Shown: in pieces, positions 312 to 12,021 of the stretch
How the letters are laid out: every line of letters starts with the position of its first letter
Numbering within the stretch: position 1 is the first letter of the stretch
Source: Gemmatimonadota bacterium
GTDB taxonomy: Bacteria; Gemmatimonadota; Gemmatimonadetes; Gemmatimonadales; GWC2-71-9
Reading direction: 5' to 3'
Assembly: GCA_039590195.1 (NCBI GenBank)
Contig: JBDHFY010000209.1
Span: 1 to 12,063 of the forward strand
Length of the DNA: 12,063 nucleotides
Program-made: the position numbers and the translations under genes
Notes under the pieces: model-generated
Seen by the model: the letters and a program-made list of their open reading frames with translations, nothing else
What the model was told of the DNA's origin: nothing
Databases searched by the model: none

Positions 312-1763
312 CTATGCCAGCTTTGCAGCTGTGGCAGTGGAAGAGTCGTGTACCCCGTCGCCAACGTCCGCCACCGGAAGCCATAGTGTAAAAGTGCTGC
401 CGGACCCCGGGTGTGATTCGACAGTAATCCGTCCAGATTGAAGCTCGGCCAGGAGGCGCGCGATGGTGAGGCCGAGCCCAGCACCACCATGCGCCCGGCT
501 CCGCGAGGCCTCCAGTCGACAGAAGCGATCGAAGATCCTCTCGGTGTGTTCCGGCCCGATACCGGGGCCGGTGTCCCTCACTTCGACGCCGCCGAGATCG
601 TTCGTCCGTCTGACGGCGATGCTCACCGCACCCTCCGCCGTATACCGCACGGCGTTTGAGATGAGATTGAACAGCACGTGCCTCGTGCGGTCCGGATCGC
701 CGACCACCTGAAGCGGGCCGTTCATATCTCCTTTGATCTCGAGTTCCCGGCTCTCCGACATGGCCACCGCGATCTCGTACACTTCTGCCGCCACTTCCGT
801 CAGATCGAACGGCCGGCGGTCAACCGACAGCTGACCGTTCTCGCCTCTTGCGATGAGCAGCAGGTCCTCCACCATCTTATTGGTCCGCTCGATTTCCTTC
901 TCGATGGCACCGAGGGCCTCGCGCATCTCAACACCGCTGCGTCCTTCTGCCTGCGCCCACTGCGCCTGGGCGCGAATGTGGGTGAGCGGTGTGCGCAGCT
1001 CGTGACTCGCGTCGCCCGTGAACGCATCCAGGGCCTGGTGCGCCCGCTCCACCCGCTCGAGCATCCGGTTGACGCTGTCCGCAAGCTCGGTCACCTCGGC
1101 CTGGCCGGTAGGCGTGTCCACTCGGAGATCCAATTCCTCGGGCCCGATGGCCCGCATAGTGGCGCCTACCTGTCGAAGCGGGGAAAGCGCAGCCTGCACC
1201 GAGCGGCGAGCCCTTCGCCGGGCAAGAAGCGCTGTCACCGGGACCAGGATCGCCGCGGCGGTCAGCAGCAACAGCAGACCGGCGGCGAGCGTTGCCCGGC
1301 TAGCCACCACGTAGATATCAAAGCTATCGGACTTGCGATGGAGCATAACGTACCGCCACCTGGCGCGGTCGCTGATCTCTGCGAGCAGCAGGTCGCGCAT
1401 GGCGTCGGGCGAGGCGGGTCCAATGCCCTCGATGCGCCTGGCCGGCATGTCAGGAGAAAGGAAATACAACTCGCGCATGTCGTCGGCACCGGCTTCTCTG
1501 GTGATGGCAAAGGCGTGCGTCATCCCGACGAGCTGATCGGCGAGCATGGCCGGTGCCACAGTAGTCGGTTCCCCTGCGGGATCCGCGTAGAGGCCGAGCA
1601 ACGATTCGATGACGTCTGCCGTGTGTTCCAGCGACCGCCGCAGCCCGAATTCCGAGACGGCGCCGAAGACGACGATCACCAACAGGGCGTAGCCTGCCAC
1701 TGCTCCCCACACTGTCCGGTTGAACCCGGCCACGAGCTGCGCCTCCAGACGTCGCTCAGTCAT
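312..1763 (-). CDS. Sensor histidine kinase: two TM segments flank a periplasmic sensor domain of about 130 aa, followed by HAMP, HisKA and HATPase_c domains
   Basis: The ORF 312..1943 is trimmed to the ATG at 1763 (MTERRLEAQ...), which overlaps the RR stop as ATGACTGA. The H-box reads ASHELRTPLT and the G-boxes read GPGIGPE and GGAGLGLTIA. Two hydrophobic segments flank the periplasmic region. Confidence 0.85.
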   Translation of the reverse strand: MTERRLEAQLVAGFNRTVWGAVAGYALLVIVVFGAVSEFGLRRSLEHTADVIESLLGLYADPAGEPTTVAPAMLADQLVGMTHAFAITREAGADDMRELYFLSPDMPARRIEGIGPASPDAMRDLLLAEISDRARWRYVMLHRKSDSFDIYVVASRATLAAGLLLLLTAAAILVPVTALLARRRARRSVQAALSPLRQVGATMRAIGPEELDLRVDTPTGQAEVTELADSVNRMLERVERAHQALDAFTGDASHELRTPLTHIRAQAQWAQAEGRSGVEMREALGAIEKEIERTNKMVEDLLLIARGENGQLSVDRRPFDLTEVAAEVYEIAVAMSESRELEIKGDMNGPLQVVGDPDRTRHVLFNLISNAVRYTAEGAVSIAVRRTNDLGGVEVRDTGPGIGPEHTERIFDRFCRLEASRSRAHGGAGLGLTIARLLAELQSGRITVESHPGSGSTFTLWLPVADVGDGVHDSSTATAAKLA

Positions 1764-2439
1764 CCTCGCGCTCCAAGCGATATCCGACACCGCGGACGGT
1801 GGTGATGGGCGCGCGGCGTCCGCCGAAGGAGAGCTTCTTCCGCAGATAGTTGATGTACACGTCCACCACGTTGGTCTCCGTGTCGAACTGGTAGTGCCAC
1901 ACTGCCTCGGCGATGCGGGAACGGGAAACTGTCCGTCCGGCATGCCGCATGAGAAACTCCAGGAGCGCCAGCTCTCGCTCGCTCAAATCCACGATCCGAC
2001 CGCTGTGAGTCACCTGCCGGTGATGGGGGTCGAGCGTGAGATCGCCCACCACCATGAGCGCCTCCTGATGCCGGAGCGCCGCTCGGCGGATCAAGGCATG
2101 AACCCGAGCTAGGAGCTCCGAGAGGTCGAACGGCTTCGTTAAGTAGTCGTCGGCGCCCGTCTCGAGGCCCTCCACTCGCGATTGCAACTCCTCACGGGCA
2201 GTAAGCATCAAGACTGGCGTGTGCACCGACCGCTCGCGAAGCTCTGCCACGACACTGAACCCGTCCCGCACAGGCAACATGAGATCCAACACGATGCATG
2301 CGTAGTCGCGGCTCAGCGCGCGCTCGAGTGCCCTTTCGCCGTCCTCGGCTTCATCGACGGCGTATCCCTCTTCACAAAACGCTTTCTTGAGAAACCGCCT
2401 GAGGGGCCGGTCATCCTCGACCAAGAGAAGTTCCATCAC
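1756..2439 (-). CDS. OmpR/PhoB-family response regulator (REC domain plus winged-helix DNA-binding domain). The C-terminal motif VDVYINYLRKKL resembles the heavy-metal CusR/CzcR/CopR subgroup.
   Basis: The protein is 227 aa, with the acidic pocket LLVEDD, D at LDLMLP, a conserved T in LMLTAR and K in YLTKPF. The C-terminal winged helix has RELALLEFLMRHAGRTVSR ... VDVYINYLRKKL. It lies upstream of, and overlaps, the HK gene. Confidence 0.9.
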   Translation of the reverse strand: MMELLLVEDDRPLRRFLKKAFCEEGYAVDEAEDGERALERALSRDYACIVLDLMLPVRDGFSVVAELRERSVHTPVLMLTAREELQSRVEGLETGADDYLTKPFDLSELLARVHALIRRAALRHQEALMVVGDLTLDPHHRQVTHSGRIVDLSERELALLEFLMRHAGRTVSRSRIAEAVWHYQFDTETNVVDVYINYLRKKLSFGGRRAPITTVRGVGYRLEREDD

Positions 2440-2496
2440 AACAACCTAAGGCCGAGTGGGGGAAAACGGCAGGGTTGGGTCGAAGAGACCGACACT

Positions 2497-2512
2497 ATTA
2501 GAGCGTTCTAAT
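2497..2512. promoter_or_regulatory. Perfect 6-4-6 palindrome ATTAGAgcgtTCTAAT, a candidate response-regulator box in the RR/lipoprotein divergent intergenic region
   Basis: Read in the sequence. It sits in a locally AT-rich intergenic stretch 58-73 nt upstream of the RR ATG (2439), on the other strand. Heavy-metal RR boxes (CusR/CopR type) are similar 6-4-6 palindromes. Confidence 0.3.
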
Positions 2513-2523
2513 GTTCGCTGGGG

Positions 2524-2550
2524 ATTAGAGGAGAATGAGAAACTTCTAAT
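2524..2550. promoter_or_regulatory. Second pair of ATTAGA / TCTAAT hexamers, inverted with a 15-nt spacer
   Basis: ATTAGA is at 2524-2529 and TCTAAT at 2545-2550. This gives four copies of the same hexamer within 55 bp. Confidence 0.22.
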
Positions 2551-2684
2551 AACACACTCAAGGCCCTCCTCCCTCCGGGGCCGTCCCTCTATACTGCGTC
2601 GCGCTTTCATGAGTCAATCGCCATGCCCGATGGGGCTATGATGCCCCGCGCTTCGTACGACGGCCAACCCAAGGAGGAGATTCC

Positions 2685-3437
2685 ATGCGCAACAACGTCT
2701 TTGCCGTGCTCACGATCTCGGCAGTCCTTGTAGGATGCAACGAGAGCATGTCGAGCCTCACCGACCCCGACATGCAGGCCGCCGCTTCGAGCGGCGTCGA
2801 GAACGCCGCGGATGCAGCGGCGCGAACGTATGAGGTCACGATCGAGAACCTCACCGGCAGCCAGCCGTTTTCCCCCGGCATCGTGGCCACGCACACACGG
2901 CAGGAACATGCGTTCCAAGTCGGTGAGTTTGCCAGCGAAGGCATCCGCTTGATCGCCAAGACCGGCTCGCCCGGCACTGCTTTGGCCGAGCTTGGCGGAG
3001 TTCCAGGTGTCGACCAGGTCGTGTCGACAGGGTCCCCGGTGGGTTGCGTCGGATGCTCTGGTCCCCCCAGCACGCTGACGATCCCGATCGAAGCCCGGGC
3101 CAACGCAAACCGCCTGTCGGTGGCGGTCATGCTCATCTGCACGAATGACGGCTTCGTAGGACTCGACGGCGTGCGGTTGCCGGGTGGCTTCAAGCCGGTG
3201 ACATACATGGCCTCCGCGTACGACGCCGGCACCGAGTTGAACGACGAGCTATCGACCAGCATCGTCGACGCCTGCGGCGCCATCGGTCCGGTGGATTTCC
3301 CGGGCGACGGAGACAGCCGGACCGCGACCTCAGAGCCCATCTCACACCACGCGGGAATCCAAGGCGTCGGAGATCTCTCCGCTGCTCATGGCTGGACGGA
3401 TCCGGTGGCCAGGATCACGGTGAGGCGAGTGAAGTAG
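2685..3437 (+). CDS. Secreted lipoprotein with a spondin_N-like (reeler/spondin) domain
   Basis: There is a strong SD (AAGGAGGAG) 7 nt before the ATG. The signal peptide carries a lipobox (LVGC-N). The motifs YEVTIENLTGSQPFSPGIVATH ... FASEGIRLIA ... LSVAVMLICTNDGFVGLDGVRL match the Spondin_N pattern as I remember it. Confidence 0.7.
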   Translation: MRNNVFAVLTISAVLVGCNESMSSLTDPDMQAAASSGVENAADAAARTYEVTIENLTGSQPFSPGIVATHTRQEHAFQVGEFASEGIRLIAKTGSPGTALAELGGVPGVDQVVSTGSPVGCVGCSGPPSTLTIPIEARANANRLSVAVMLICTNDGFVGLDGVRLPGGFKPVTYMASAYDAGTELNDELSTSIVDACGAIGPVDFPGDGDSRTATSEPISHHAGIQGVGDLSAAHGWTDPVARITVRRVK

Positions 3438-3452: not shown

Positions 3453-3664
3453 GAGAAGGGAGAAGGCCCCACCCAACTCCCCGGCCCCTGCTGCCAGCTG
3501 CCTGCGACCAGACGTGAGAGGCCAGCCCGGGGCGCAAGCCCGGGGTTTTCATGTGAGCCACAGATGAACGCGGGTTCGCGCGGATGCGGTTTGAGTTATC
3601 AGAGCTGGCAGCCGGCCGCTGGCAGCTGAGGCGGTGGTTGCGGTGCGGGGCCTTCTCCCTTCTC
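3453..3664. repeat. An 18-bp perfect inverted repeat (GAGAAGGGAGAAGGCCCC at 3453-3470 and its reverse complement at 3647-3664) flanking 176 bp between convergent genes. The right arm overlaps the permease stop codon.
   Basis: Read in the sequence. The left flank also carries a 14-nt direct repeat, GGGAGAAGGGAGAG/GGGAGAAGGGAGAA, at 3437-3464. Inside are CTGCCAGCTGCC / GCTGGCAGCTG sub-palindromes. Confidence 0.55.
3525..3549 (+). terminator. Candidate intrinsic terminator: a 6-bp all-GC stem CCCGGG / CCCGGG with a 7-nt loop (gcgcaag), followed by GTTTT
   Basis: Positions 3526-3531 pair with 3539-3544 and the T-run is at 3546-3549. It lies 88 nt downstream of the lipoprotein stop. Confidence 0.4.
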
Positions 3665-4844
3665 ACTCTTCTCGTAGCGTCGCAGCCGGATCGACTCCCG
3701 CGGCCCGTCGCGCCGGAATGACACAGGCAAGGAGCGCCGTCGCCACAAGACCGACCGTGACGCCTGCAAACGTCACCCCGTCCGTAGGGGAAACCTCGAA
3801 CAGCATGCTCGCCATGAACCGCGTGAGGGCAAGCGCCCCTCCAACACCGATGGCGATACCCAGAACCACGAGCCGCATTCCCCGTCCGACGATGAGGCGC
3901 AGGACGGACTCCGGACCCCCTCCCAGGGCCATGCGGATACCGATGTCCCGGGTGTGCTGCTGCACGAAATACGACATGACACCGTAGATGCCGATGGCGG
4001 CGAGCAAAAGCGCCACGGTGGCGAAACCGGCGATCATCGCCAGGAAGTTCCGCGGCGAATCCAATGCGCTCTCCATCAGTTCTTCCATCGTAGCAACTTC
4101 AGAGAGCGGCAACGTAAGATCCAACTCACGCACGATTGCGCGGACGGCAGGCACAACGGAGAGCGGATCGGTGGCGGTGCGCACAAACAGGATCCTGCTC
4201 CACCAGGTGTTTTGCAGTACCGGCTGGTAGATAGTCCCCCAGCCGGGATCGTCGAGTCCCATGTACTTCACGTCGCCCACCACCCCAATCACGGTCAACC
4301 AGGGACAGTCCGGACGGTTGCAGCCTCCAGAGTGAAGGCGCCTACCGATGGGATCCTCGCCGGGGAAAAAACGCCGCACCCATGCCTGATCCACAAGGGC
4401 CACCCGTGGCGCGCCGGGGCGGTCGCTCTCGTCGAACATGCGTCCTCGGATGAGCGGGATGCCAAGGGCGTGGAAGAACTCCGGCGACACGACAGGCCAC
4501 GGGGCTACCGGCTCGGCTTGCTCAGGCGGCGTCGGTTTATCCTCGAGGTTGAAATTGTTGATCATGCCGATGTAGTCCGGCGGTCTCGAGGAGCCCGAGC
4601 CCACGGCCACGACTCCAGGCAGCGCGCCGACGCGGTCCATGAGCTGTTCCCAGAAGGCGGCTTCCATCGCGGGCGCATCACTGTACGTTGCGCGGGGAAG
4701 AGAGATGCGCGCCGTGAGAAGATTGTCCCGATCGATCCCCGGATCGACGCGCTGCAATCTTGCAAAGCTCGTCAACAACAATCCCGCGCCGATCAAGAGC
4801 GGCACCGCCACCGCGAACTGGGACGCCACGAGCATGCGACGCAC
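3663..4844 (-). CDS. ADOP/MacB-like permease, C-terminal fragment: second MacB_PCD and second FtsX module. It is not an independent gene; the apparent MRRML start is a by-product of the duplication.
   Basis: ORF track 3663..4844. The sequence continues the upstream fragment once 14 bp are removed. Confidence 0.6.
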   Translation of the reverse strand: MRRMLVASQFAVAVPLLIGAGLLLTSFARLQRVDPGIDRDNLLTARISLPRATYSDAPAMEAAFWEQLMDRVGALPGVVAVGSGSSRPPDYIGMINNFNLEDKPTPPEQAEPVAPWPVVSPEFFHALGIPLIRGRMFDESDRPGAPRVALVDQAWVRRFFPGEDPIGRRLHSGGCNRPDCPWLTVIGVVGDVKYMGLDDPGWGTIYQPVLQNTWWSRILFVRTATDPLSVVPAVRAIVRELDLTLPLSEVATMEELMESALDSPRNFLAMIAGFATVALLLAAIGIYGVMSYFVQQHTRDIGIRMALGGGPESVLRLIVGRGMRLVVLGIAIGVGGALALTRFMASMLFEVSPTDGVTFAGVTVGLVATALLACVIPARRAAGVDPAATLREE

Positions 4845-6391
4845 AGCATGCGACGCACACGCTGCGCGCGCAGGCTCCCCGTGGCCGTGCGGCCGCTCGA
4901 GCCTAGAGTTCGCTCGAAATCAGAACGCGTCGCCTGCAGCGACGGAATCAAGCCAAACAACAAGCCGCTCGCCAGGGTAACGGCGATCGTGAACCACAGC
5001 ACCGGTCCGCTGAAGCCGATCTCGGCCGCGCGCGGTACGAAGGTGGATCCGCTGGCAGCCATAACGTCCACCGCAGCGAACGTCAGGACGAGGCCGAGAG
5101 CTGCGCCGCCCGCCGCAAGCAGTGCGCTCTCGGTCAACAGGTGCTGCAGAAGTCTACCGCGCGATGCCCCGAGCGCTGCCCGCACCGCCAACTCTCGGCC
5201 TCGTTGGGTGCCACGGGCCACCAACAGGTTCGCAGCATTCGTCGATGCGATGAGCAGCACGAATCCAACAGCGCCAAGGAGAACAAGCAAGCGCGCACCA
5301 ACGTCTCCAATCACGAACGCGTGAAGGCTCTCGACTCCGTACGTGACGGTGGAGTCAGGGTAGGACGATTTCCAAATGGGGAAGATGCGCTCGTTGATTG
5401 CTCTCAGTTCCTCTTCAGCGACACCAACCTCGGCATCGGGTCGCAAACGACCGAGCACTCGCAGAGAAAACGGCCCCTTCCGCGGTGGCGGCTGCATCTG
5501 CAGGATCGGGAACACCTCGCGCCGCGCCTCGAGGGGGCCAGCGTTCGGCGGAAGCACCCCAACCACGGTGTAGTCGTTGCCGTCGAGCCTTATGAGGCGA
5601 CCGATGGCTTCCGGGTCGCCACCGAGTCGTTCACGCCAAAAGCGGTGCGCGAGAACCGCCGTGCTCTCTGCGCCGAGTACGGCGTCGGCTGGGACGAACG
5701 TACGACCATGGAGCGGCATGATGCCCAACAGGGGGAAGTAAGCGGGTGTCACGAACATGACGAAGATCCGTTCAGCTACCTCGTCTTGGTTGAACGTCGC
5801 CGCGGAGTTGCGGTACGCGGCCACACTCTCGAACGTGGTCTGCTGCTCGTCGATGGCTTGATAATCCACCACCGAGAGCGGCCAGCGGTTGGGCGGGGAG
5901 TCCGTATAGATGCGCACGACTCGCCCGGGTTCAGAATAGGGAAGTGGCTTCAACAACACCGCGTGCACCACACTGAAGACCGCTGCGGTGCCGCCGATTC
6001 CAAGACCCACAGTCAATAGGATCGTGAGGCTCAAGCCGGGAGTCTTGATCAGACTTCTCGCACTGTGGCGAACGTCCCGCAACACATGGCGGATCGTTTC
6101 TCCGAAGCCCCCCGATCGGAGGACGCCCGATGTGGCGCTTGGTCGTGTGAGCTTGCCTGCGCCGAGCCGGTCGGCCAGCAGTCGAATCGGATACTGCATC
6201 GCTTGACGACGATACCAGGCGGCGGCAGCCTCATCACCGTCGCGGACGCGGCGGCGGTCAAAGAGCTCATCGAGGTCGTTCAACACCGCGAAACGATCCT
6301 CCCGGCTCAACAACAGTCTGAGAACCCACCGCACCAGCAGAGGAAGACGGGGGTTCTTCTCTCCGGACGAAGACCGAGGGGTCATGGGCAT
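4793..6391 (-). CDS. ADOP/MacB-like permease, N-terminal fragment: prefix domain, first MacB_PCD and first FtsX module, up to the frameshift
   Basis: ORF track 4793..6427. The start is trimmed to the ATG at 6391, which is coupled to the padR stop. Its last 18 codons, after the duplication, are out-of-frame read-through. Confidence 0.6.
   Translation of the reverse strand: MPMTPRSSSGEKNPRLPLLVRWVLRLLLSREDRFAVLNDLDELFDRRRVRDGDEAAAAWYRRQAMQYPIRLLADRLGAGKLTRPSATSGVLRSGGFGETIRHVLRDVRHSARSLIKTPGLSLTILLTVGLGIGGTAAVFSVVHAVLLKPLPYSEPGRVVRIYTDSPPNRWPLSVVDYQAIDEQQTTFESVAAYRNSAATFNQDEVAERIFVMFVTPAYFPLLGIMPLHGRTFVPADAVLGAESTAVLAHRFWRERLGGDPEAIGRLIRLDGNDYTVVGVLPPNAGPLEARREVFPILQMQPPPRKGPFSLRVLGRLRPDAEVGVAEEELRAINERIFPIWKSSYPDSTVTYGVESLHAFVIGDVGARLLVLLGAVGFVLLIASTNAANLLVARGTQRGRELAVRAALGASRGRLLQHLLTESALLAAGGAALGLVLTFAAVDVMAASGSTFVPRAAEIGFSGPVLWFTIAVTLASGLLFGLIPSLQATRSDFERTLGSSGRTATGSLRAQRVRRMLCVACSWRPSSRWRCRS
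4831..4858. repeat. Perfect 14-bp tandem duplication (AGCATGCGACGCAC twice) inside the permease gene, causing a +14 frameshift
   Basis: Read in the sequence: 4831-4844 is identical to 4845-4858. Confidence 0.9.
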
Positions 6392-6720
6392 CACACCTCG
6401 TCCAACACCGTTTCCACGCCTTCCCACAGGCGAGCCAGTTGGCGGCGAGATTCCTTGAGCCGCCGTATCGCATCCGGGGTCAGCTTGAAGTAGCGCCGGA
6501 CGCGACCGGTCTCTTCACCGGCCTGACCGTCGAACCGCGACGTCAACAGGCCCTTCTTTTCCAGACGTCGCAGCACGATAAACACGGCGGCCTGGGCCAC
6601 CTCCCGGCCGGTGCGTTCCTCCAGCTCTTCCACGACGGGGACGCTGTAGGCTTCGCCACCGAGGCGAAGAACGGTGAGGAGGACCTGGTGCTCGAAATCG
6701 CCGAGGTTTTCTCGTGCCAT
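6391..6720 (-). CDS. PadR-family transcriptional regulator
   Basis: The ORF 6391..6759 is trimmed to the ATG at 6720 (MARENLGDFEHQVLLTVL...), which has a GGAG SD 4 nt upstream. The winged HTH reads ...AAVFIVLRRLEKKGLL...RRYFKLT. Its stop TGA overlaps the ATG of the downstream permease. Confidence 0.85.
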   Translation of the reverse strand: MARENLGDFEHQVLLTVLRLGGEAYSVPVVEELEERTGREVAQAAVFIVLRRLEKKGLLTSRFDGQAGEETGRVRRYFKLTPDAIRRLKESRRQLARLWEGVETVLDEV

Positions 6721-6728
6721 GGGAACTC

Positions 6729-6743
6729 CACTAACATTGTTAG
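6729..6743. promoter_or_regulatory. Perfect palindrome ACTAACA-t-TGTTAGT (7-bp arms) abutting the padR SD, around the predicted transcription start: a candidate PadR autoregulatory operator
   Basis: Read in the sequence. Related copies are at 6776-6788 (TAACAaTGTTA), 6824-6831 (AACATTGT) and 6846-6853 (ATAACAAT). Confidence 0.4.
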
Positions 6744-6745
6744 TA

Positions 6746-6774
6746 CTATGATACGCCACCTAAGGGTGGATGTC
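6746..6774 (-). promoter_or_regulatory. Sigma70-type promoter for padR and the permease: -35 TTGACA (6774-6769), a 17-nt spacer, and -10 TATCAT (6751-6746). The spacer itself contains the palindrome CCACC-taag-GGTGG.
   Basis: The minus strand reads TTGACAtccacccttaggtggcgTATCAT. This places the transcription start just before operator A. Confidence 0.5.
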
Positions 6775-6808: not shown

Positions 6809-6837
6809 CTTGACATCGCCTCGCCAACATTGTACTA
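6809..6837 (+). promoter_or_regulatory. Possible promoter for the GntR operon: TTGACA (6809-6814), a 17-nt spacer, and a weak -10 TACTAG. An inverted repeat TATAGaaCTATA (6858-6869) lies in the 5' UTR.
   Basis: The -35 hexamer is perfect and the -10 is a poor match. This is the only AT-rich stretch upstream of the TTG start at 6884. Confidence 0.25.
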
Positions 6838-6883
6838 GTTCACCATAACAATAGTGATATAGAACTATAGAGGACGAAGCACC

Positions 6884-7258
6884 TTGGAATTCTCCATCGA
6901 CCCGAAGAGTGGGGTCCCGTTTTACCGGCAGATCATCGAGCAGGTGAAGTTCGCCCTGGCGGGTGGCGGCTTGGAGCCGGGAGAGCGGCTGCCGACGGTA
7001 CGGCAGCTCGCGGTGGATCTCTCGATCAATCCGAACACGGTCATTCGCGCGTACCGGGAAATGGAGATCGAAGGCGTCCTCGAAACGCAGCAGGGGTCCG
7101 GGACCTTTGTGGGTAACCAGCCGCCAGAAATCGACGCCCTCGAGCGGCGGCGGATGCTCGACCAGATCCTGACAGACCTCCTGGCCCGCGCCTCGGCGTA
7201 CGGGCTCACCCTCGACGAGGTGCTCGAGGGGCTGCGCCAGCGAAAGGAGGAGTCCTGA
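6884..7258 (+). CDS. GntR-family transcriptional regulator of the YtrA subfamily (short C-terminal domain)
   Basis: It is 124 aa with a TTG start and an AGGA 9 nt upstream. The HTH reads GERLPTVRQLAVDLSINPNTVIRAYREMEIEGVLETQQGSGTFV. The short C-terminal tail is typical of YtrA regulators, which usually control adjacent ABC transporters. Confidence 0.85.
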   Translation: MEFSIDPKSGVPFYRQIIEQVKFALAGGGLEPGERLPTVRQLAVDLSINPNTVIRAYREMEIEGVLETQQGSGTFVGNQPPEIDALERRRMLDQILTDLLARASAYGLTLDEVLEGLRQRKEES

Positions 7259-8403
7259 TGAGCTCAGCATCCAAGCCCCCCCCTCCCAGCATCCACAAGG
7301 CGCTACTCCAACTGTCCCTCGAAAGATTTGCCGCGGGAAGCAGGGCGGACTTTCGATTCGCGCCTCTCAACGTCCTACTGCTTGTCGCGATCTTCGTGAT
7401 CGGACTGGTGGTGCACCTGAACACCTATGCATTCACCATGAATGCCGTGCTGCTCTCGCTCGGGTCGGCGCTCGCCCTGGCCCTGCTCATACGAATGACC
7501 CAGGTGTGGGAGGCGGTCGTCATCCTCGGTACGGCGGACTGCCTGCTCATTTACCTCAAGATGCGCCCCGACAGCGAGATCCTGCTCGTAAGCGCTGTGG
7601 TGGCGCTTCTTGTCGCCCCGGCGATTCAAATCGCCTACCAGTGGGAACGGGCTGTGTTGCTGCGATTCGGCAAGTTTCGCGGACTTCGCAAGTCTGGTCT
7701 TTTCGGCATGGTCCCGGTCATCGACAAGGTTGCCCAGTTCGTCGACCAGCGGGTTCGTGTCAGTGACTTCAGGGCGGAGACGACGCTGACCGCCGACACG
7801 GTGCCGGTCAATGTCGATGCCATTGCGTTCTGGATGGTGTGGGATGCTCAGAAGGCTGTCCTCGAGGTCGAGCACTTCGACGATGCAGTGTTGCTCTCAG
7901 CCCAGACCGCATTGCGCAACGCCATCGGGAAGAACGACCTCGCAGTGCTGTTGTCCGAACGCGACCGGCTGGGCCACGAGATTCAAAAGGTGCTCGACGA
8001 GAAGACCAGCGGCTGGGGTGTCACGACGCAAGCCGTCGAGATCCGCGACATCATCATCCCCAAGGGTCTCGAGGACGCCATGTCGCGTCAGGCCCAGGCG
8101 GAACGGGAACGACAGAGCCGCATCATTCTCGGCACGGCGGAGACGGAGATCGCGGAGAAGTTTGCCCGCGCGTCGGACCACTACCGTAACAACCCCGTCG
8201 CCCTCCATCTGAGGGCGATGAACATGGTCTACGAGGGACTGCGGCAGAAGGGCTCCATGATCATCGTTCCCTCCACCGCGGTCGAGACCATGGGCCTTGG
8301 GGCCCTCGGCGGGTTAACGGCGTTCGGCCGCGAGGGCTCACCCCAAGCGCAACCGGCACGCTCCGAGCCCGAAGGGACTGATGAATCCAGTGTCGAACCG
8401 TAA
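7258..8403 (+). CDS. SPFH/band-7 (stomatin/QmcA-like) protein with an N-terminal multi-TM extension of about 115 aa and an acidic disordered C-terminal tail
   Basis: There is a strong SD (AAGGAGGAG) and the ATG overlaps the GntR stop as TGATG. The SPFH core (YQWERAVLLRFGKF...VDAIAFWMVWD...LSERDRLGHEIQKVLDEKTSGWGVTTQAVEIRDIIIP...AQAERERQ) aligns along QmcA/stomatin. Three to four hydrophobic helices precede it. Confidence 0.85.
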   Translation: MSSASKPPPPSIHKALLQLSLERFAAGSRADFRFAPLNVLLLVAIFVIGLVVHLNTYAFTMNAVLLSLGSALALALLIRMTQVWEAVVILGTADCLLIYLKMRPDSEILLVSAVVALLVAPAIQIAYQWERAVLLRFGKFRGLRKSGLFGMVPVIDKVAQFVDQRVRVSDFRAETTLTADTVPVNVDAIAFWMVWDAQKAVLEVEHFDDAVLLSAQTALRNAIGKNDLAVLLSERDRLGHEIQKVLDEKTSGWGVTTQAVEIRDIIIPKGLEDAMSRQAQAERERQSRIILGTAETEIAEKFARASDHYRNNPVALHLRAMNMVYEGLRQKGSMIIVPSTAVETMGLGALGGLTAFGREGSPQAQPARSEPEGTDESSVEP

Positions 8404-8469
8404 CATGCAAACGCTGTGCAACGGCGGACACACCGCTGTTGCCGTTGAAACTTGTGAGGAGCTGGACCA

Positions 8470-8655
8470 ATGAAACCGTCTGCGATCGTAACACTGATCT
8501 TCCTGTGCCTCGTGGCCGTCATCCACCTGGTGCGTTTCGTATTCCAGGTGAACATCACCGTCGACGCTGTCGTCGTACCGATGTGGGCCAGCCTGGTTGC
8601 GTTCTTCGCGTTGGGGGCGCTGGCCCTGTGGTTGTGGCGTGAGCAACGGGCGTAA
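8470..8655 (+). CDS. Small membrane protein of 61 aa with two predicted TM helices
   Basis: A GAGGAG SD lies 8 nt before the ATG. Codon third positions are GC-rich. It has two hydrophobic helices and ends in WLWREQRA. Confidence 0.5.
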   Translation: MKPSAIVTLIFLCLVAVIHLVRFVFQVNITVDAVVVPMWASLVAFFALGALALWLWREQRA

Positions 8656-8694
8656 CCACACAACGCCCAATAAGAACGCTGACACGTCCGCGTC

Positions 8695-8919
8695 ATGTCA
8701 TCCATTATCGCGTCCTGCACCCGTCCGGTCATCGCTCGCGTCCTAGAGCGACGCGACGGCCGGCGCACAGATCGGCCGGCATCCGTTTCCGTTTTGCTCG
8801 GCGGCCTGTTGCTCCTCCTCTGGGGCTACTTCACGTACGTCGACTGGCCCGTCGCATGGCCGGCGCCAATCCGTCCGATCGTCAAGGCCATCGGGTGGAT
8901 CTGGATGGCCATGGACTAG
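8695..8919 (+). CDS. Small membrane protein of 74 aa, with a basic N-terminus and one or two TM helices
   Basis: Third-position GC is very high, consistent with coding. The TM helix is VSVLLGGLLLLLWGYFTYV. Its stop lies 5 nt before the ATPase ATG at 8925. No clear SD is present. Confidence 0.35.
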   Translation: MSSIIASCTRPVIARVLERRDGRRTDRPASVSVLLGGLLLLLWGYFTYVDWPVAWPAPIRPIVKAIGWIWMAMD

Positions 8920-8924
8920 CGATC

Positions 8925-9935
8925 ATGTTCCTGACGCTTGGGGTCCCGCCACATGCTCAACCGGAGCGCACGACGAGACACACGGAGAACTCGAACGTCG
9001 TACTGCGGCTGAGCGGTCTCCGGAAGGCCTATGGAGATCTCGTTGCGGTCGACGACCTGTCGTTGGACGTCCTCCGCGGCGAAGTCTTCGGTTTTCTAGG
9101 GCCCAACGGCGCCGGCAAGACGACCACCATCAGCATGATCTGCGGCCTGCTGAAGGCCGATCGCGGCGAGATCGCGATCGGCGGCCGTCCTCTCGAGGAC
9201 CATTACCGGGAATGCAAACGCATGATGGGCCTCTGCCCCCAGCACGTGGTCGTCTGGGAATCCCTGACATGCCTCGAACAACTAGAGTTTGTTGGGCGCC
9301 AGTACGATCTGCGCCGAGGTGCGGCGCGCAAGAAAGCCTTGGAGTTGCTGGACACGCTCGGTCTCAGCGACAGAAAGAACAAGCTCGCCAAGACGCTCTC
9401 CGGCGGCATGAAGCGCCGGTTGAACATTGCCCTGGCACTCGTTCACGATCCGGAGATTCTCATCCTCGACGAGCCGCAGGCCGGCCTCGACCCACAGAGT
9501 CGTATCCTCATCAGAGAATACATCCGGTCGCTGGCCAACCGCATGACGGTGATTCTCACGACCCACGAGATGGATGAGGCGGATCGTCTCGCCGATCGGA
9601 TCGCCATCATCGACCACGGCCGGCTCCTGGTGCTCGATACACCTGATTGCCTCAAGAGTCAGATCGGCAATGGCGATGTGCTGGAGATTCACATCCCCGA
9701 TGCAGGAGCGGACGAGGTAAACCGCCTCCGGCATGCCCTTCCGGAAGAGCTACGTAACCTGTCCATCGAACAGGGGACCTTGCGGCTCGTAGGCGTGGAC
9801 GTTCTCAATGCGGTGCCGACGTTGATCGAAGAATTGCGCAAGGTCAACCTAGAAGTCCACCAGGACATCACGGTTCGCAAAAAGACGTTGGAGGATGTGT
9901 TCATCACGTTGACCGGCAGGAGGTTGCGGGAGTGA
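8925..9935 (+). CDS. ABC transporter ATP-binding protein of the ABC-2/DrrA-NatA type, with a C-terminal accessory domain of about 100 aa
   Basis: Walker A is GPNGAGKTT, the Q-loop is LCPQ, the signature is LSGGMKRRLNIALAL, Walker B is ILILDEP and the H-loop is TTHE. The start at 8925 is chosen because it abuts the upstream small ORF; an alternative ATG at 8856 is in frame. Confidence 0.85.
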   Translation: MFLTLGVPPHAQPERTTRHTENSNVVLRLSGLRKAYGDLVAVDDLSLDVLRGEVFGFLGPNGAGKTTTISMICGLLKADRGEIAIGGRPLEDHYRECKRMMGLCPQHVVVWESLTCLEQLEFVGRQYDLRRGAARKKALELLDTLGLSDRKNKLAKTLSGGMKRRLNIALALVHDPEILILDEPQAGLDPQSRILIREYIRSLANRMTVILTTHEMDEADRLADRIAIIDHGRLLVLDTPDCLKSQIGNGDVLEIHIPDAGADEVNRLRHALPEELRNLSIEQGTLRLVGVDVLNAVPTLIEELRKVNLEVHQDITVRKKTLEDVFITLTGRRLRE

Positions 9936-11107
9936 GATTAGCCAGTCTCTTCAAAAAGACGATGATTGAGAACCTGCGGGACTGGAAGGTGTTGATCCTC
10001 ACGTTGACCTTTGCTCCGTTCTTCGTGGTCCTGATGTACTTCTACTTCGGCGAGGCCGCTACCACTCCACACCGAGTCATCGTGGTCAATCACGACGAGG
10101 GAGCGACAACTGCCGACGGCGACGCCTTCAACGGGGGGCAGGCGTTGATCGTCGAGATGGAGAACGCCAGCTACCCCGAGGGCAGGAGCGTATTGGAGGT
10201 GCGCCGGGAACGGGACATAGAGATCGCCCAGCAACGCCTGAAGAACAAATCCGTTGATCTGGTCGTGGAGATCCCGCCACAGTTCTCGCGGATTCTTCAG
10301 GATCACAAGCAGGGACGCCGACCGCCTGCCGCGGTCGTCACCACTTACGGGGATCCGGCCAACGCCAAGTACATCATGGCCGCGGTCTGGAGCGACATGA
10401 TCACTTACGAGTATTCCGGAGTGGTGACAGGCGCGACCAATCCGGTCGAGCTTCAGGCACACACTGTGAGTGGCGTCGAATCATTGAACGACTTCGAGCT
10501 CTATGTTCCCGGCTTGCTCGCTCTCGCTCTGATGATGCTGATGTTCACCGCCGCCGCGTCCCTTATAAAGGAAAAGGACAAAGGCACCATCATTCGCCTG
10601 CGCATCTCGAATATGACCACCTTCGAGTGGCTCACGGCGGTCAGCTTGACCCAGATCATCCTCGGCATGCTCGCCTTGGCGCTCACCCTCGTGACGGCCG
10701 TGGCACTGGGATACGAGACCTCCGGGTCACTGGCCGCTCTGACGGCGGTCGGTCTGCTGTCGAGCCTAGCCATCATGGCCGTCGGGCTCGTGGTCGCGGC
10801 CTCGCTCAGAACGATCTTCGATCTCATGACCATCGGCAGCTTCCCGTTCTTCATCCTGATGTTCTTTTCCGGCGGGATGTTCCCACTTCCCCAGCTGCGG
10901 TTGTTCACCGTAGCCGGCCGTGCGGTGAACGCCAACGACCTCCTCCCCACCACACACTCGATATCGGCCCTGGGCAAGATCCTCAACTTCGGAGCAGGGT
11001 TGGGCGACGTGCTATTTGAGCTGGCGGCCATTGCCGTGCTGACCCTGCTCTTCTTTGCCGGCGGAACGTGGCTGTTTACGAAGCGGCATATGCAGGCTGC
11101 CGCCTAG
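9932..11107 (+). CDS. ABC-2 family permease: TM1, an extracytoplasmic domain of about 150 aa, then five TM helices (NatB/ABC2_membrane_3-like)
   Basis: The GTG start overlaps the ATPase stop as GTGA, with an AGGAGG SD 7 nt upstream. The topology is read from the hydrophobicity pattern. Confidence 0.85.
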   Translation: MRLASLFKKTMIENLRDWKVLILTLTFAPFFVVLMYFYFGEAATTPHRVIVVNHDEGATTADGDAFNGGQALIVEMENASYPEGRSVLEVRRERDIEIAQQRLKNKSVDLVVEIPPQFSRILQDHKQGRRPPAAVVTTYGDPANAKYIMAAVWSDMITYEYSGVVTGATNPVELQAHTVSGVESLNDFELYVPGLLALALMMLMFTAAASLIKEKDKGTIIRLRISNMTTFEWLTAVSLTQIILGMLALALTLVTAVALGYETSGSLAALTAVGLLSSLAIMAVGLVVAASLRTIFDLMTIGSFPFFILMFFSGGMFPLPQLRLFTVAGRAVNANDLLPTTHSISALGKILNFGAGLGDVLFELAAIAVLTLLFFAGGTWLFTKRHMQAAA

Positions 11108-11114
11108 GTTGACC

Positions 11115-11603
11115 ATGGGACAGACCGTGAACGAAGCGATTGCGAAGCTTGGTGGAACGGACCGCGACGATGAGGCTGCGGCCCGCTCCTGGCGCCGGTC
11201 ACCGACAATCTCCTGGGTAAGCCTGTGCCTTGCCGTGGCGTTACACGTGGCGGACGAGGCCGCCAATGATTTCCTCTCCGTCTACAATCCGAGCGTGCTT
11301 CGCATCAGGGAACGACTACCATTTCTTCCACTGCCCACTTTTACCTTTGAAGTCTGGATCGCCGGGTTGGCCACTGCCGTCGTCGTGGCCCTGGGCCTCT
11401 CACCCTTCGTATCCCGGCGGAAGAGTTGGATGCGAGTCATGGTCGTGATCCTTTCGGCCCTGATGATTCTCAACGGTCTCGCGCACCTGGCGGGGTCCAT
11501 ACGAACGGGCAGCGTGATGCCTGGCACCCTCTCGTCCCCGATCCTTCTCACCGCCGCCGCTTGGACGTTGTCCCAAGCATGGGCGGGCTGGAATCCACGG
11601 TGA
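11115..11603 (+). CDS. Membrane protein of 162 aa with about four TM helices and a conserved-looking ALHVADEA motif (possibly related to the HXXEE domain)
   Basis: The ATG lies 7 nt after the permease stop. The hydrophobic helices are read from the sequence. Its function is unknown. Confidence 0.55.
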   Translation: MGQTVNEAIAKLGGTDRDDEAAARSWRRSPTISWVSLCLAVALHVADEAANDFLSVYNPSVLRIRERLPFLPLPTFTFEVWIAGLATAVVVALGLSPFVSRRKSWMRVMVVILSALMILNGLAHLAGSIRTGSVMPGTLSSPILLTAAAWTLSQAWAGWNPR

Positions 11604-11706
11604 CTTTGCGGTGGTCTCGACTTCTCCAGTGGGCGTGGAGACCCCCACTGGACACCGAGTGGCCTGGCTGTTATGTGTACTCAAGCCACCGAACGGGAGC
11701 GAGACC

Positions 11707-12021
11707 ATGACAGCGCCACCCCCCTCAGCTTCCACGGACCTCCAGACCATCCCAGGTGTCGGGCCCAGTATCACCAAGGACCTGCACGACCTGGGCATCC
11801 GCCAGGTGCAGGACCTCCGTTGCGCTGATCCGGAACGGCTGTACGAGCGGCTCTGCATCCAGCACGGGGCCATGATCGACCGTTGCGTCCTCTACGTCTT
11901 CCGGTGCGCCGTCTACTTCGCGAGCCACGAAGAACACGATCCGAATCTCCTCAAGTGGTGGAACTGGAAGGACGAAGCAGGGTCCACGCCAATCGCTCGC
12001 GGACGGATATCGCTGCTCTAA
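11707..12021 (+). CDS. Small HhH-domain protein, Cdd1 / pathogenicity-locus / McrB-like family
   Basis: The ORF 11611..12021 is trimmed to the ATG at 11707, which has a GGGAG SD 7 nt upstream. The motifs are LQTIPGVGPSITKDLHDLGIRQVQDL...PERLYERL...CVLYVFRCAVYFAS...DPNLLKWWNWKD. Confidence 0.6.
   Translation: MTAPPPSASTDLQTIPGVGPSITKDLHDLGIRQVQDLRCADPERLYERLCIQHGAMIDRCVLYVFRCAVYFASHEEHDPNLLKWWNWKDEAGSTPIARGRISLL

Follow-up and report, generated by a model that had tools for sequence, protein, structure and literature searches.

The stretch of DNA analysed here, referred to below as the window, comprises 12,063 nucleotides (nt) from a Gemmatimonadota bacterium (assembly GCA_039590195.1, contig JBDHFY010000209.1), and all positions are given in the numbering of the whole stretch. 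Positions 6884-11603 carry a string of seven open reading frames (ORFs) on the + strand. In order, they encode a GntR regulator of the YtrA type (124 residues, 6884-7258; PF00392, 59.2 bits against a cutoff of 27), a stomatin-type SPFH protein, or slipin (381 residues, 7258-8403; Band_7, PF01145, 111 bits over residues 128-294), a 61-residue membrane protein with two transmembrane (TM) segments (s61, 8470-8655), a 74-residue product (s74, 8695-8919), a DrrA/NodI-like ABC ATPase (336 residues when read from the ATG at 8925, 8925-9935; ABC_tran, PF00005, 114 bits), an ABC-2 permease (391 residues, 9932-11107; ABC2_membrane_3, PF12698, 105 bits; ABC2_membrane, PF01061, 59 bits) and a membrane protein of the HXXEE family (162 residues, 11115-11603; PF13787, 32.1 bits against a cutoff of 25, residues 37-150). 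An earlier note on this DNA had described the same string, and all seven ORFs are present at the coordinates that it gives. Comparison with homologous loci shows the functional core, as far as related sequences define it, to be a two-gene, translationally coupled operon made up of the YtrA-type GntR regulator and the stomatin-type SPFH protein.

The genes of the string are closely packed, with distances between successive genes of -1 (a TGATG overlap), 66, 39, 5, -4 (GTGA) and 7 nt. In every one of them, s61 and s74 included, the GC content of the third codon position (GC3) exceeds that of the first (GC1), which in turn exceeds that of the second (GC2), as is expected of real reading frames in a sequence with 62% GC. 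No canonical + strand terminator lies between the genes of the string, and no Rfam family was found in the window. A GC-rich hairpin with a 10-bp stem and no U-tract can be folded on the + strand at 8418-8442, in the gap between the SPFH gene and s61; it is not kept in the closest relative, locus L004, and may serve as an attenuator or a stabiliser.

When one genome per species was scanned, a relative proved to be encoded in at least 551 genomes; the best 80 loci were analysed together with three found earlier, giving 83 loci in all (numbered L below where they need to be told apart). Their taxon labels include Gemmatimonadota, Acidobacteriota, Latescibacterota, Planctomycetota, Myxococcota, Krumholzibacteriia and Bipolaricaulota, among others. 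A GntR homologue is located directly 5' of the SPFH gene and on the same strand in all of the 79 loci for which upstream sequence is available (83 fetched), with identities to the window regulator of 62-84%. Of 76 unique loci, 69 show an overlap (ATGA or TGATG) between the stop codon of GntR and the start codon of SPFH. The GC content of the loci ranges from 36 to 71%, and the mean pairwise identity of the SPFH proteins is still 72%. A terminator consisting of a hairpin and a T-run follows the SPFH gene in only 2-6 of 80 loci. The earlier note had read the stomatin as an insertion into a module of YtrA regulator, ATPase and permease; the constant adjacency and the frequent overlap of the first two genes instead assign the GntR gene to the SPFH gene. 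One metagenome-assembled genome (MAG), CALAKE01, holds two distinct GntR-SPFH copies on different contigs (L017 and L062).

The GntR protein consists of a winged helix-turn-helix domain (residues 14-76) and a short C-terminal region of about 48 residues. In NCBIfam, it comes closest to the YtrA-type regulators Rv1152 and PmtR. The closest relatives of known structure (PDB IDs: 4HAM, 3NEU, 3BY6, 4R1H and 6SBS) are also YtrA-type, have lengths of 121-134 residues and align with the window protein nearly from end to end. By its length and its best structural relatives, in addition to the PF00392 match, the regulator belongs to the YtrA subfamily, and the assignment made from the sequence at first reading is retained.

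Upstream of the regulator gene, a promoter is predicted on the + strand at 6810-6838, with a -35 hexamer TTGACA (6810-6815), a 17-nt spacer and a -10 hexamer TACTAG (6833-6838); transcription is predicted to start near 6845. The consensus scanner overlooked this promoter because the -10 hexamer ends in G, and the same layout (TTGACA, about 17 nt, TACTAt) recurs 5' of GntR in most of the homologous loci. The full consensus of this region reads TTGACA, ~17 nt,.ATTGTACTAt...aCTAgaACA.TAGt...cTAg..Ca. and contains an array of half-sites of the types TTGTACTA (6830-6837 in the window) and TAGAACA, including ATAACAAT/TAGAAC; the window sequence of this array is cATTGTACTAGTTCACCATAACAATAGTGATATAGAACT. 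A 40-nt position weight matrix (PWM) built from 59 loci places a predicted YtrA operator at 6828-6867 on the + strand (48.9 bits), a stretch that takes in the -10 hexamer and the predicted start of transcription. As a comparative footprint, a PWM site of at least 20 bits is found 5' of GntR in 75 of 79 loci, and no site of this strength occurs elsewhere in about 870 kb of locus sequence. Within the window, no second operator of at least 12 bits was found outside the promoter region, including the sequences before the ABC genes and before the divergent PadR gene. By analogy with other YtrA operons, the half-site array at the GntR promoter would constitute an autoregulatory operator. Together, these comparisons show that hundreds of genomes from several phyla share the gene pair, with protein identities of about 60-90%, and its predicted operator. 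A palindrome, TAGTACTA, at 6741-6748 resembles a GntR half-site, and its occurrence is within chance expectation.

The SPFH protein begins with a tail rich in lysine and arginine (residues 1-36), followed by four TM segments (37-54, 63-79, 84-100 and 109-125) and the SPFH domain (128-294). The C-terminal part is formed by a coiled coil and a hydrophobic segment (295-358), after which comes a variable tail. The matches among known structures are the PH1511 stomatin (E = 1.5e-38), human stomatin (6e-36), QmcA (2e-25) and HflK (2e-8); the alignment with human stomatin extends from residue 119 to residues 339-340, across the coiled coil and the C-terminal segment. Homologues are labelled 'slipin family protein' in public sources. 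By homology, the core of the protein is of the stomatin/slipin (SPFH1) branch and is nearer to the stomatins than to HflK. Among 75 distinct homologues, identity to the window protein is 88% in the SPFH domain and 91% in the coiled-coil and C-terminal region. An AlphaFold2 (AF2) model of the full protein, calculated from a 39-sequence alignment (76-95% identity), is poor outside the TM region, with a mean predicted local distance difference test score (pLDDT) of 53, and a Foldseek search with this model against the PDB gave no match at E <= 0.001.

The main structural peculiarity of the protein is its N-terminal membrane region, which exceeds that of a single-TM slipin by a 36-residue tail and three TM segments, and that of the nearest two-TM relatives by two TM segments. 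Residues 19-105 are present in all of the 75 distinct homologues (occupancy 0.99), with 65% identity to the window protein. Family-averaged hydropathy shows four hydrophobic segments, with averages of 5.7 lysine and arginine residues before TM1 and 5.5 after TM4. Because such K/R-rich stretches flank the TM block on both sides, the topology is predicted to be N-in/C-in, with the SPFH domain in the cytoplasm. The AF2 model, a structure prediction of the kind that the earlier note had proposed as a check, gives four helices in the extension, with mean pLDDT values by block of 68-90 over residues 31-130 and of 78-90 from residue 41. Polar residues are conserved in or near the TM segments (H53, R79, Q82, W84, E85, R103 and the TAD motif at 92-94), and an invariant motif of the tail precedes TM1: S20-E22-F24...R29-A30-D31-x-R33-F34-x-P36 (SLExFAxxxRADFRFAP).

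A search with the extension alone against 1.84 billion representative proteins returned only 90 clusters; most of these are short fragments in which the match is N-terminal or nearly so, and none represents a divergent relative or one in which the extension stands alone. No plasmid record covers the extension, all plasmid-borne slipin matches beginning at residue 123, and no Pfam family matches it at E <= 0.1. The extension, which had been pointed out at first reading as an unusual multi-TM feature of this stomatin, is by these comparisons a genuine, conserved and clade-specific part of the protein. Two other explanations of it were rejected. A start-codon artefact, with the true start at an internal methionine (61, 80 or 102), is ruled out by the conservation of the region and by the conserved stop/start overlap; the upstream SPFH start codon is fixed by this overlap with the GntR stop. 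A fused NfeD or other known domain is ruled out by the lack of a Pfam match and of divergent or stand-alone relatives.

A similar pair is present in the Bacteroidota. The nearest annotated canonical slipin is that of Parabacteroides distasonis, whose gene is preceded by an overlapping GntR gene (L164, NZ_OY725779 91857-93120; WP_009275952 and WP_009275953); both proteins carry generic annotations only. The GntR protein is 50% identical to that of the window (E = 4.5e-39), and the slipin, of 292 residues, has 59% identity over residues 107-358. Both pairs have the same GntR-slipin order; the window slipin has four TM segments and the Bacteroidota slipin has two. Upstream of the P. distasonis GntR gene lies TTGTATA-N7-TATACAA followed by TAGTACAA, with half-sites of the same type, and the three best PWM matches of the locus cluster there, although their score of 10.3 bits is modest, the best shuffle reaching 14.0. 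In P. timonensis and two other Bacteroidota contigs (L166-L168), a GntR gene of 126-134 codons is followed by one for a Band_7 protein of 293-297 residues. The genes of the Bacteroidota pairs overlap or are separated by about 5 nt, the downstream genes vary, and no NfeD gene is found in the Pfam-annotated contexts. The P. distasonis slipin was seen on 1000 contigs or more, one of them a 5.46-Mb chromosome, in a search that returned almost only near-identical P. distasonis sequences; it is a core gene of this species.

The genes downstream of the pair are much less constant. The two small ORFs had been regarded in the earlier note as membrane partners of the stomatin, and this does not hold: s61 is found in about six loci, and s74 in addition to the window only in L004. 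Homologues of s61 (59-67 residues, or 86 in L068 through an upstream start) have two TM segments and lie 3' of SPFH in L004, L007, L013, L068 and L016/17. Codon position 2 is the least variable in these genes, GC3 of s61 is 0.81, a GAGGAG lies 8 nt 5' of its ATG, and no Pfam, NCBIfam or PADLOC match was found for the product. Judged by its homologues and codon pattern, s61 is a real but sporadic accessory gene. An s61-like ORF also stands directly before an ABC ATPase-permease pair in L121 (4806-7140) with no GntR-SPFH genes nearby, so that s61 is not strictly tied to the slipin.

The case of s74 is different. Like s61, it matched no family in the profile searches, but its product resembles residues 11-82 of a 193-residue PF04191 protein, encoded after SPFH in L039 (3821-4399), with 31% identity (E = 1e-7). 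The copy in L004 has 63% identity to that of the window, and the 17 synonymous and 27 non-synonymous codon changes between the two point to weak constraint. It is probably the N-terminal stump of a PEMT/ICMT-like methyltransferase gene, cut where the ABC pair begins, and it resembles the scar of a rearrangement that brought in the ABC pair.

Orthologues of the HXXEE protein (59-67% identity) are encoded directly after SPFH in L001/L069 and L112, and after s61 in L068, and by these comparisons HXXEE is a recurrent accessory of the GntR-SPFH pair in this subclade. The commonest downstream neighbour of SPFH, present in 12 loci (including L005, L008, L015, L024, L025, L028, L042, L043 and L067), encodes a protein of about 520 residues that has a signal peptide and a lipobox-like cysteine and no Pfam match. 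DUF6868, a two-TM protein of about 90 residues unrelated to s61, is encoded after SPFH in six loci of lower-GC hosts, including L026, L032, L033, L046 and L047; other small two-TM proteins and ECF sigma factors are also found in this position. The variety of arrangements is seen in the gene orders (GntR)-SPFH-s61-s74-ATPase-permease(-HXXEE) of the window and L004, GntR-SPFH-HXXEE-ATPase-permease of L112, GntR-SPFH-ATPase-permease of L073 and L075, SPFH-s61-HXXEE of L068, GntR-SPFH-HXXEE of L069 and GntR-SPFH-PEMT-like of L039. As far as gene content indicates, the loci have a constant two-gene core with a variable tail, mostly of membrane proteins.

The ATPase and the permease, whose genes overlap, are by homology an ABC-2 type exporter. 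The ATPase matches TIGR01188 (drrA) with 277 bits, which is under the cutoff of that model, and the permease has a large loop after TM1. The start of the ATPase gene is ambiguous between the ATG at 8925, 5 nt past the stop codon of s74, and another ATG at 8856, which would overlap s74; the former is the sole ATPase start codon downstream of the s74 stop.

The rest of the window contains genes for a histidine kinase and a response regulator, a Spondin_N protein, a split ADOP permease, a divergent PadR regulator and a Cdd1-family protein. The histidine kinase and the OmpR-type response regulator, on the - strand, adjoin the secreted Spondin_N protein on the + strand (312-3437) and are unrelated to the operon. 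The ADOP-family permease (TIGR03434; - strand, 3663-6427) is broken into two ORFs, 4793-6427 and 3663-4844, which overlap and near 4793-4844 encode one and the same peptide stretch in two frames; it is either a frameshifted pseudogene or the product of an assembly error. It adjoins the PadR gene, PadR being the usual partner of ADOP permeases. The start of the PadR gene, on the - strand, is probably the methionine codon near 6720 rather than the GTG at 6759, and a near-consensus promoter (TTGACA-17-TATCAT, 11 of 12 matches) is located at 6776-6748 on the - strand, inside the longer PadR ORF. The Cdd1-family gene (PF11731, helix-hairpin-helix) follows HXXEE at 11611-12021. Its likely start is Met 11707, the spacer of about 100 nt before this start is structured (fold z-score -1.97), and the gene probably lies outside the operon.

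Several known systems share parts of this arrangement. The SPFH1 proteins of the pairs QmcA-YbbJ (Escherichia coli) and PH1511-PH1510 (Pyrococcus horikoshii) have in common with the window slipin the Band_7 core, the coiled coil, the hydrophobic C-terminal segment and a soluble part predicted to be cytoplasmic. The window slipin differs from them in its four TM segments and 36-residue tail, where the known proteins have one TM segment or a hairpin, and in its operon partner, which is a YtrA repressor and not NfeD. In Sulfolobus acidocaldarius, YtrA is encoded by the first gene of an autorepressed operon that also contains a membrane-protein gene; its regulon is tiny, and its site consists of a semi-palindrome with extra half-sites spanning the transcription start (PMC6746942). 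As in that operon and in ytrGABCDEF of Bacillus subtilis (PMC12772383), the window operon has a short GntR gene in first position followed by membrane-protein genes. However, the partner in the window is an SPFH scaffold, whereas theirs is an ABC transporter or an uncharacterised membrane protein, and repression in the window is a prediction.

The closest parallel in composition is the bacteriocin-defence regulon of MbrR and MbrAB. In Streptococcus salivarius, the YtrA-type MbrR controls ABC exporters, the flotillin MbrH and other membrane proteins, and is itself controlled through sequestration by the neighbouring ABC ATPase MbrA (bioRxiv 10.64898/2026.02.18.706565). Both systems join a YtrA-type repressor, ABC exporters and an SPFH-family protein. 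In the Mbr system, the ABC ATPase is the invariant neighbour and sequestering partner and the flotillin is separate and less conserved, whereas in the window clade the roles are inverted, the slipin being the invariant, coupled neighbour and the ABC pair rare; the phyla also differ, and the window protein is a slipin and not a flotillin. No paper linking SPFH, stomatin or slipin with GntR, or YtrA with SPFH, was found in the full-text literature. The GntR-SPFH module is apparently undescribed, although its parts belong to known families, and the suspicion that the arrangement as a whole was new is likewise matched by the lack of a corresponding paper in the searchable literature.

The account that we favour, with moderate confidence, is that the locus encodes a stomatin scaffold module of the membrane-stress type, which is autorepressed and whose accessory genes differ from lineage to lineage. 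One or more GntR dimers would repress their own promoter by occupying the half-sites that cover its -10 hexamer and its transcription start, in the manner known from other YtrA proteins, and a membrane or envelope signal would lift this repression. The induced slipin may then build a ring or cage similar to those of stomatin, QmcA and HflK, organising or protecting a patch of membrane; with four TM helices per subunit, the membrane wall of such an assembly would be much denser than that of single-TM slipins. Transcription probably reads through from the core into the genes for s61, the exporter and HXXEE, because the gaps are short and neither a canonical terminator nor a second operator is found, and these genes would in this way share the stress control.

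Some observations weigh against this account. Expression of the accessory genes could be made independent of the GntR promoter by the hairpin at 8418-8442 and by a weak promoter-like site at 8679-8708; the intrinsic terminators of these phyla may deviate from the consensus, and read-through is predicted only. Since the SPFH part of the AF2 model is poor, the formation of a cage is argued from sequence homology alone. Finally, all of the close homologues come from uncultured MAGs, the taxon labels of which may be partly unreliable.

It is also conceivable that the protein is a classical protease-modulator slipin of the QmcA, HflK/C or PH1511 kind, which would act on FtsH or an NfeD-type protease encoded elsewhere, with GntR as an ordinary ligand-responsive autoregulator. 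The homology to stomatin, QmcA and HflK agrees with such a role. The earlier note had stressed the missing NfeD partner, and the absence itself stands: NfeD (PF01957) has no match among the window ORFs, and neither NfeD nor protease genes are present in the Pfam-annotated neighbourhoods of L001-L003 and L166-L168, the rest of these genomes not having been searched for NfeD. That this is out of the ordinary does not stand. In a 2009 survey, 229 of 353 SPFH1 genes pair with NfeD, 50 genomes have an SPFH1 gene without NfeD, and slipins of the latter kind are noted as possibly using a partner encoded elsewhere; the survey makes no mention of GntR (PMC2636767). Against a protease-linked function, no protease or NfeD gene is found in any of the annotated neighbourhoods, the effector domain of YtrA regulators is reduced and no ligand has been established for them, and the coupling to a regulator is without counterpart in the known protease-linked operons. 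We consider this role unlikely, though it is the alternative that we would keep most firmly in view.

The remaining alternatives depend on how the ABC pair is related to the core. ABC genes were counted in those 72 unique GntR-SPFH loci whose downstream sequence extends for 600 nt or more; orthologues of the ATPase and the permease (58-82% identity) lie 3' of SPFH in three of them (L004, L073 and L075). The reciprocal set consisted of 80 metagenome loci with relatives of the permease (48-71% identity). The ATPase gene is directly 5' of the permease gene in all of the 68 relative loci in which it was detected (55-82% identity), and among the 41 loci in which the sequence 5' of the ATPase gene amounts to 1.7 kb or more, SPFH and GntR precede the pair in only one, L112. 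No homologue of the window GntR was detectable in the other permease-relative loci; the genes found there 5' of the ABC pair encode, among other products, a TetR-type regulator (9 loci) and an MFS transporter. In the window, the genes for SPFH, s61 and s74 (1.67 kb) separate GntR from the ATPase gene, which are not directly adjacent as they are in the canonical YtrA-ABC module. In a tree of the SPFH proteins, the loci that carry the ABC pair form no single group and appear at three different positions, and L069, the sister of L112, has no ABC pair. There are no compositional signs of a recent transfer of the ABC genes, GC3 of which matches that of their neighbours. As far as these gene orders and the tree indicate, the ABC pair is an independent two-gene module that joined the operon in a few Gemmatimonadota lineages, at three junctions. 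The two parts of the locus are in this sense occasionally co-conserved, and the circumstance in which the earlier note would have called the juxtaposition accidental, a complete lack of co-conservation elsewhere, does not strictly apply. Because the pair recurs at three junctions, its link to GntR-SPFH is best described as facultative, and is by this comparison neither a matter of pure chance nor a core feature.

A purely neutral juxtaposition has also to be weighed, in which the exporter pair, and possibly HXXEE, has its own signals and no functional or regulatory tie to the GntR-SPFH operon. The linkage is rare in both directions, and the pair elsewhere stands under other regulators such as TetR. 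The promoter-like site at 8679-8708 and the hairpin after SPFH could supply the separate signals, and the PEMT-like remnant would mark the scar of a rearrangement. However, three independent types of junction with the same orthologue group would hardly arise by pure chance, the gaps of 5, -4 and 7 nt and the lack of a canonical terminator upstream do not suggest separate transcription, and the GC3 of the ABC genes, being like that of their neighbours, gives no sign of recent arrival. In our judgement, this explanation is improbable.

Conversely, all seven genes might form a dedicated scaffold-plus-exporter machine, in which the extended stomatin confines the exporter or controls its opening, with the small TM proteins as adaptors in the place of NfeD; this is close to the single unit proposed in the earlier note. 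Here, the recurrence of one ABC orthologue group after GntR-SPFH in L004, L073, L075 and L112, at three junctions, suggests repeated selection for the linkage; the tight spacing on one strand and the combination of ABC exporters and a flotillin in the streptococcal YtrA regulon point in the same direction. But the ABC pair is missing from about 96% of the GntR-SPFH loci, and SPFH and this GntR are missing from about 98% of the loci with ABC relatives, so that the proposal of one unit, with its 3 of 72 and 1 of 41 loci, is weakly supported. In addition, the ABC pair occurs without s61 or s74 in L073, L075 and L112, s74 looks like a gene fragment, and no operator precedes the ABC genes. Such a machine seems to us quite unlikely. 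An anti-phage or other conflict system around the SPFH protein, to which the variable flanks and the wide, patchy spread across phyla might point, is highly improbable, as there are no adjacent nuclease, toxin or mobile-element genes and PADLOC gives no match for GntR, SPFH, s61, s74, the permease or HXXEE, and only a generic ATPase similarity for the ABC protein.

Returning to the autorepressed scaffold module that we prefer, the signal that relieves repression could, speculatively, be delivered by the slipin itself, which might control the repressor by sequestration, as MbrA does for MbrR. In its strongest form, the YtrA-slipin pair would be a self-contained sensor and responder of membrane state, the four-TM ring and the tail sensing a perturbation of lipids or envelope and reversibly capturing YtrA; this more specific proposal, made by analogy with the Mbr system, we regard as distinctly doubtful.

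SPFH proteins are ubiquitous membrane organisers with poorly defined functions in bacteria, and YtrA regulators are very numerous, the way in which they sense their signals being largely obscure; sequestration by a neighbouring ABC ATPase, reported in the preprint on the Mbr system, is the one mechanism described to date. The GntR-SPFH module described here defines a subfamily of stomatins with a four-TM membrane domain, and a conserved YtrA-slipin module, with its own predicted operator and without NfeD, has a range that takes in both Gemmatimonadota and the Parabacteroides of the gut; the ABC-2 exporter accompanies it only occasionally and lies outside this core. The circuit is simple and is tractable in cultured P. 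distasonis, where the pair offers a test case for the control of YtrA repressors by membrane partners other than ABC proteins. If capture of YtrA by the slipin were true, it would be an instance of an SPFH scaffold directly regulating a transcription factor, and it would explain how ligand-less YtrA regulators without a neighbouring ABC transporter are controlled.

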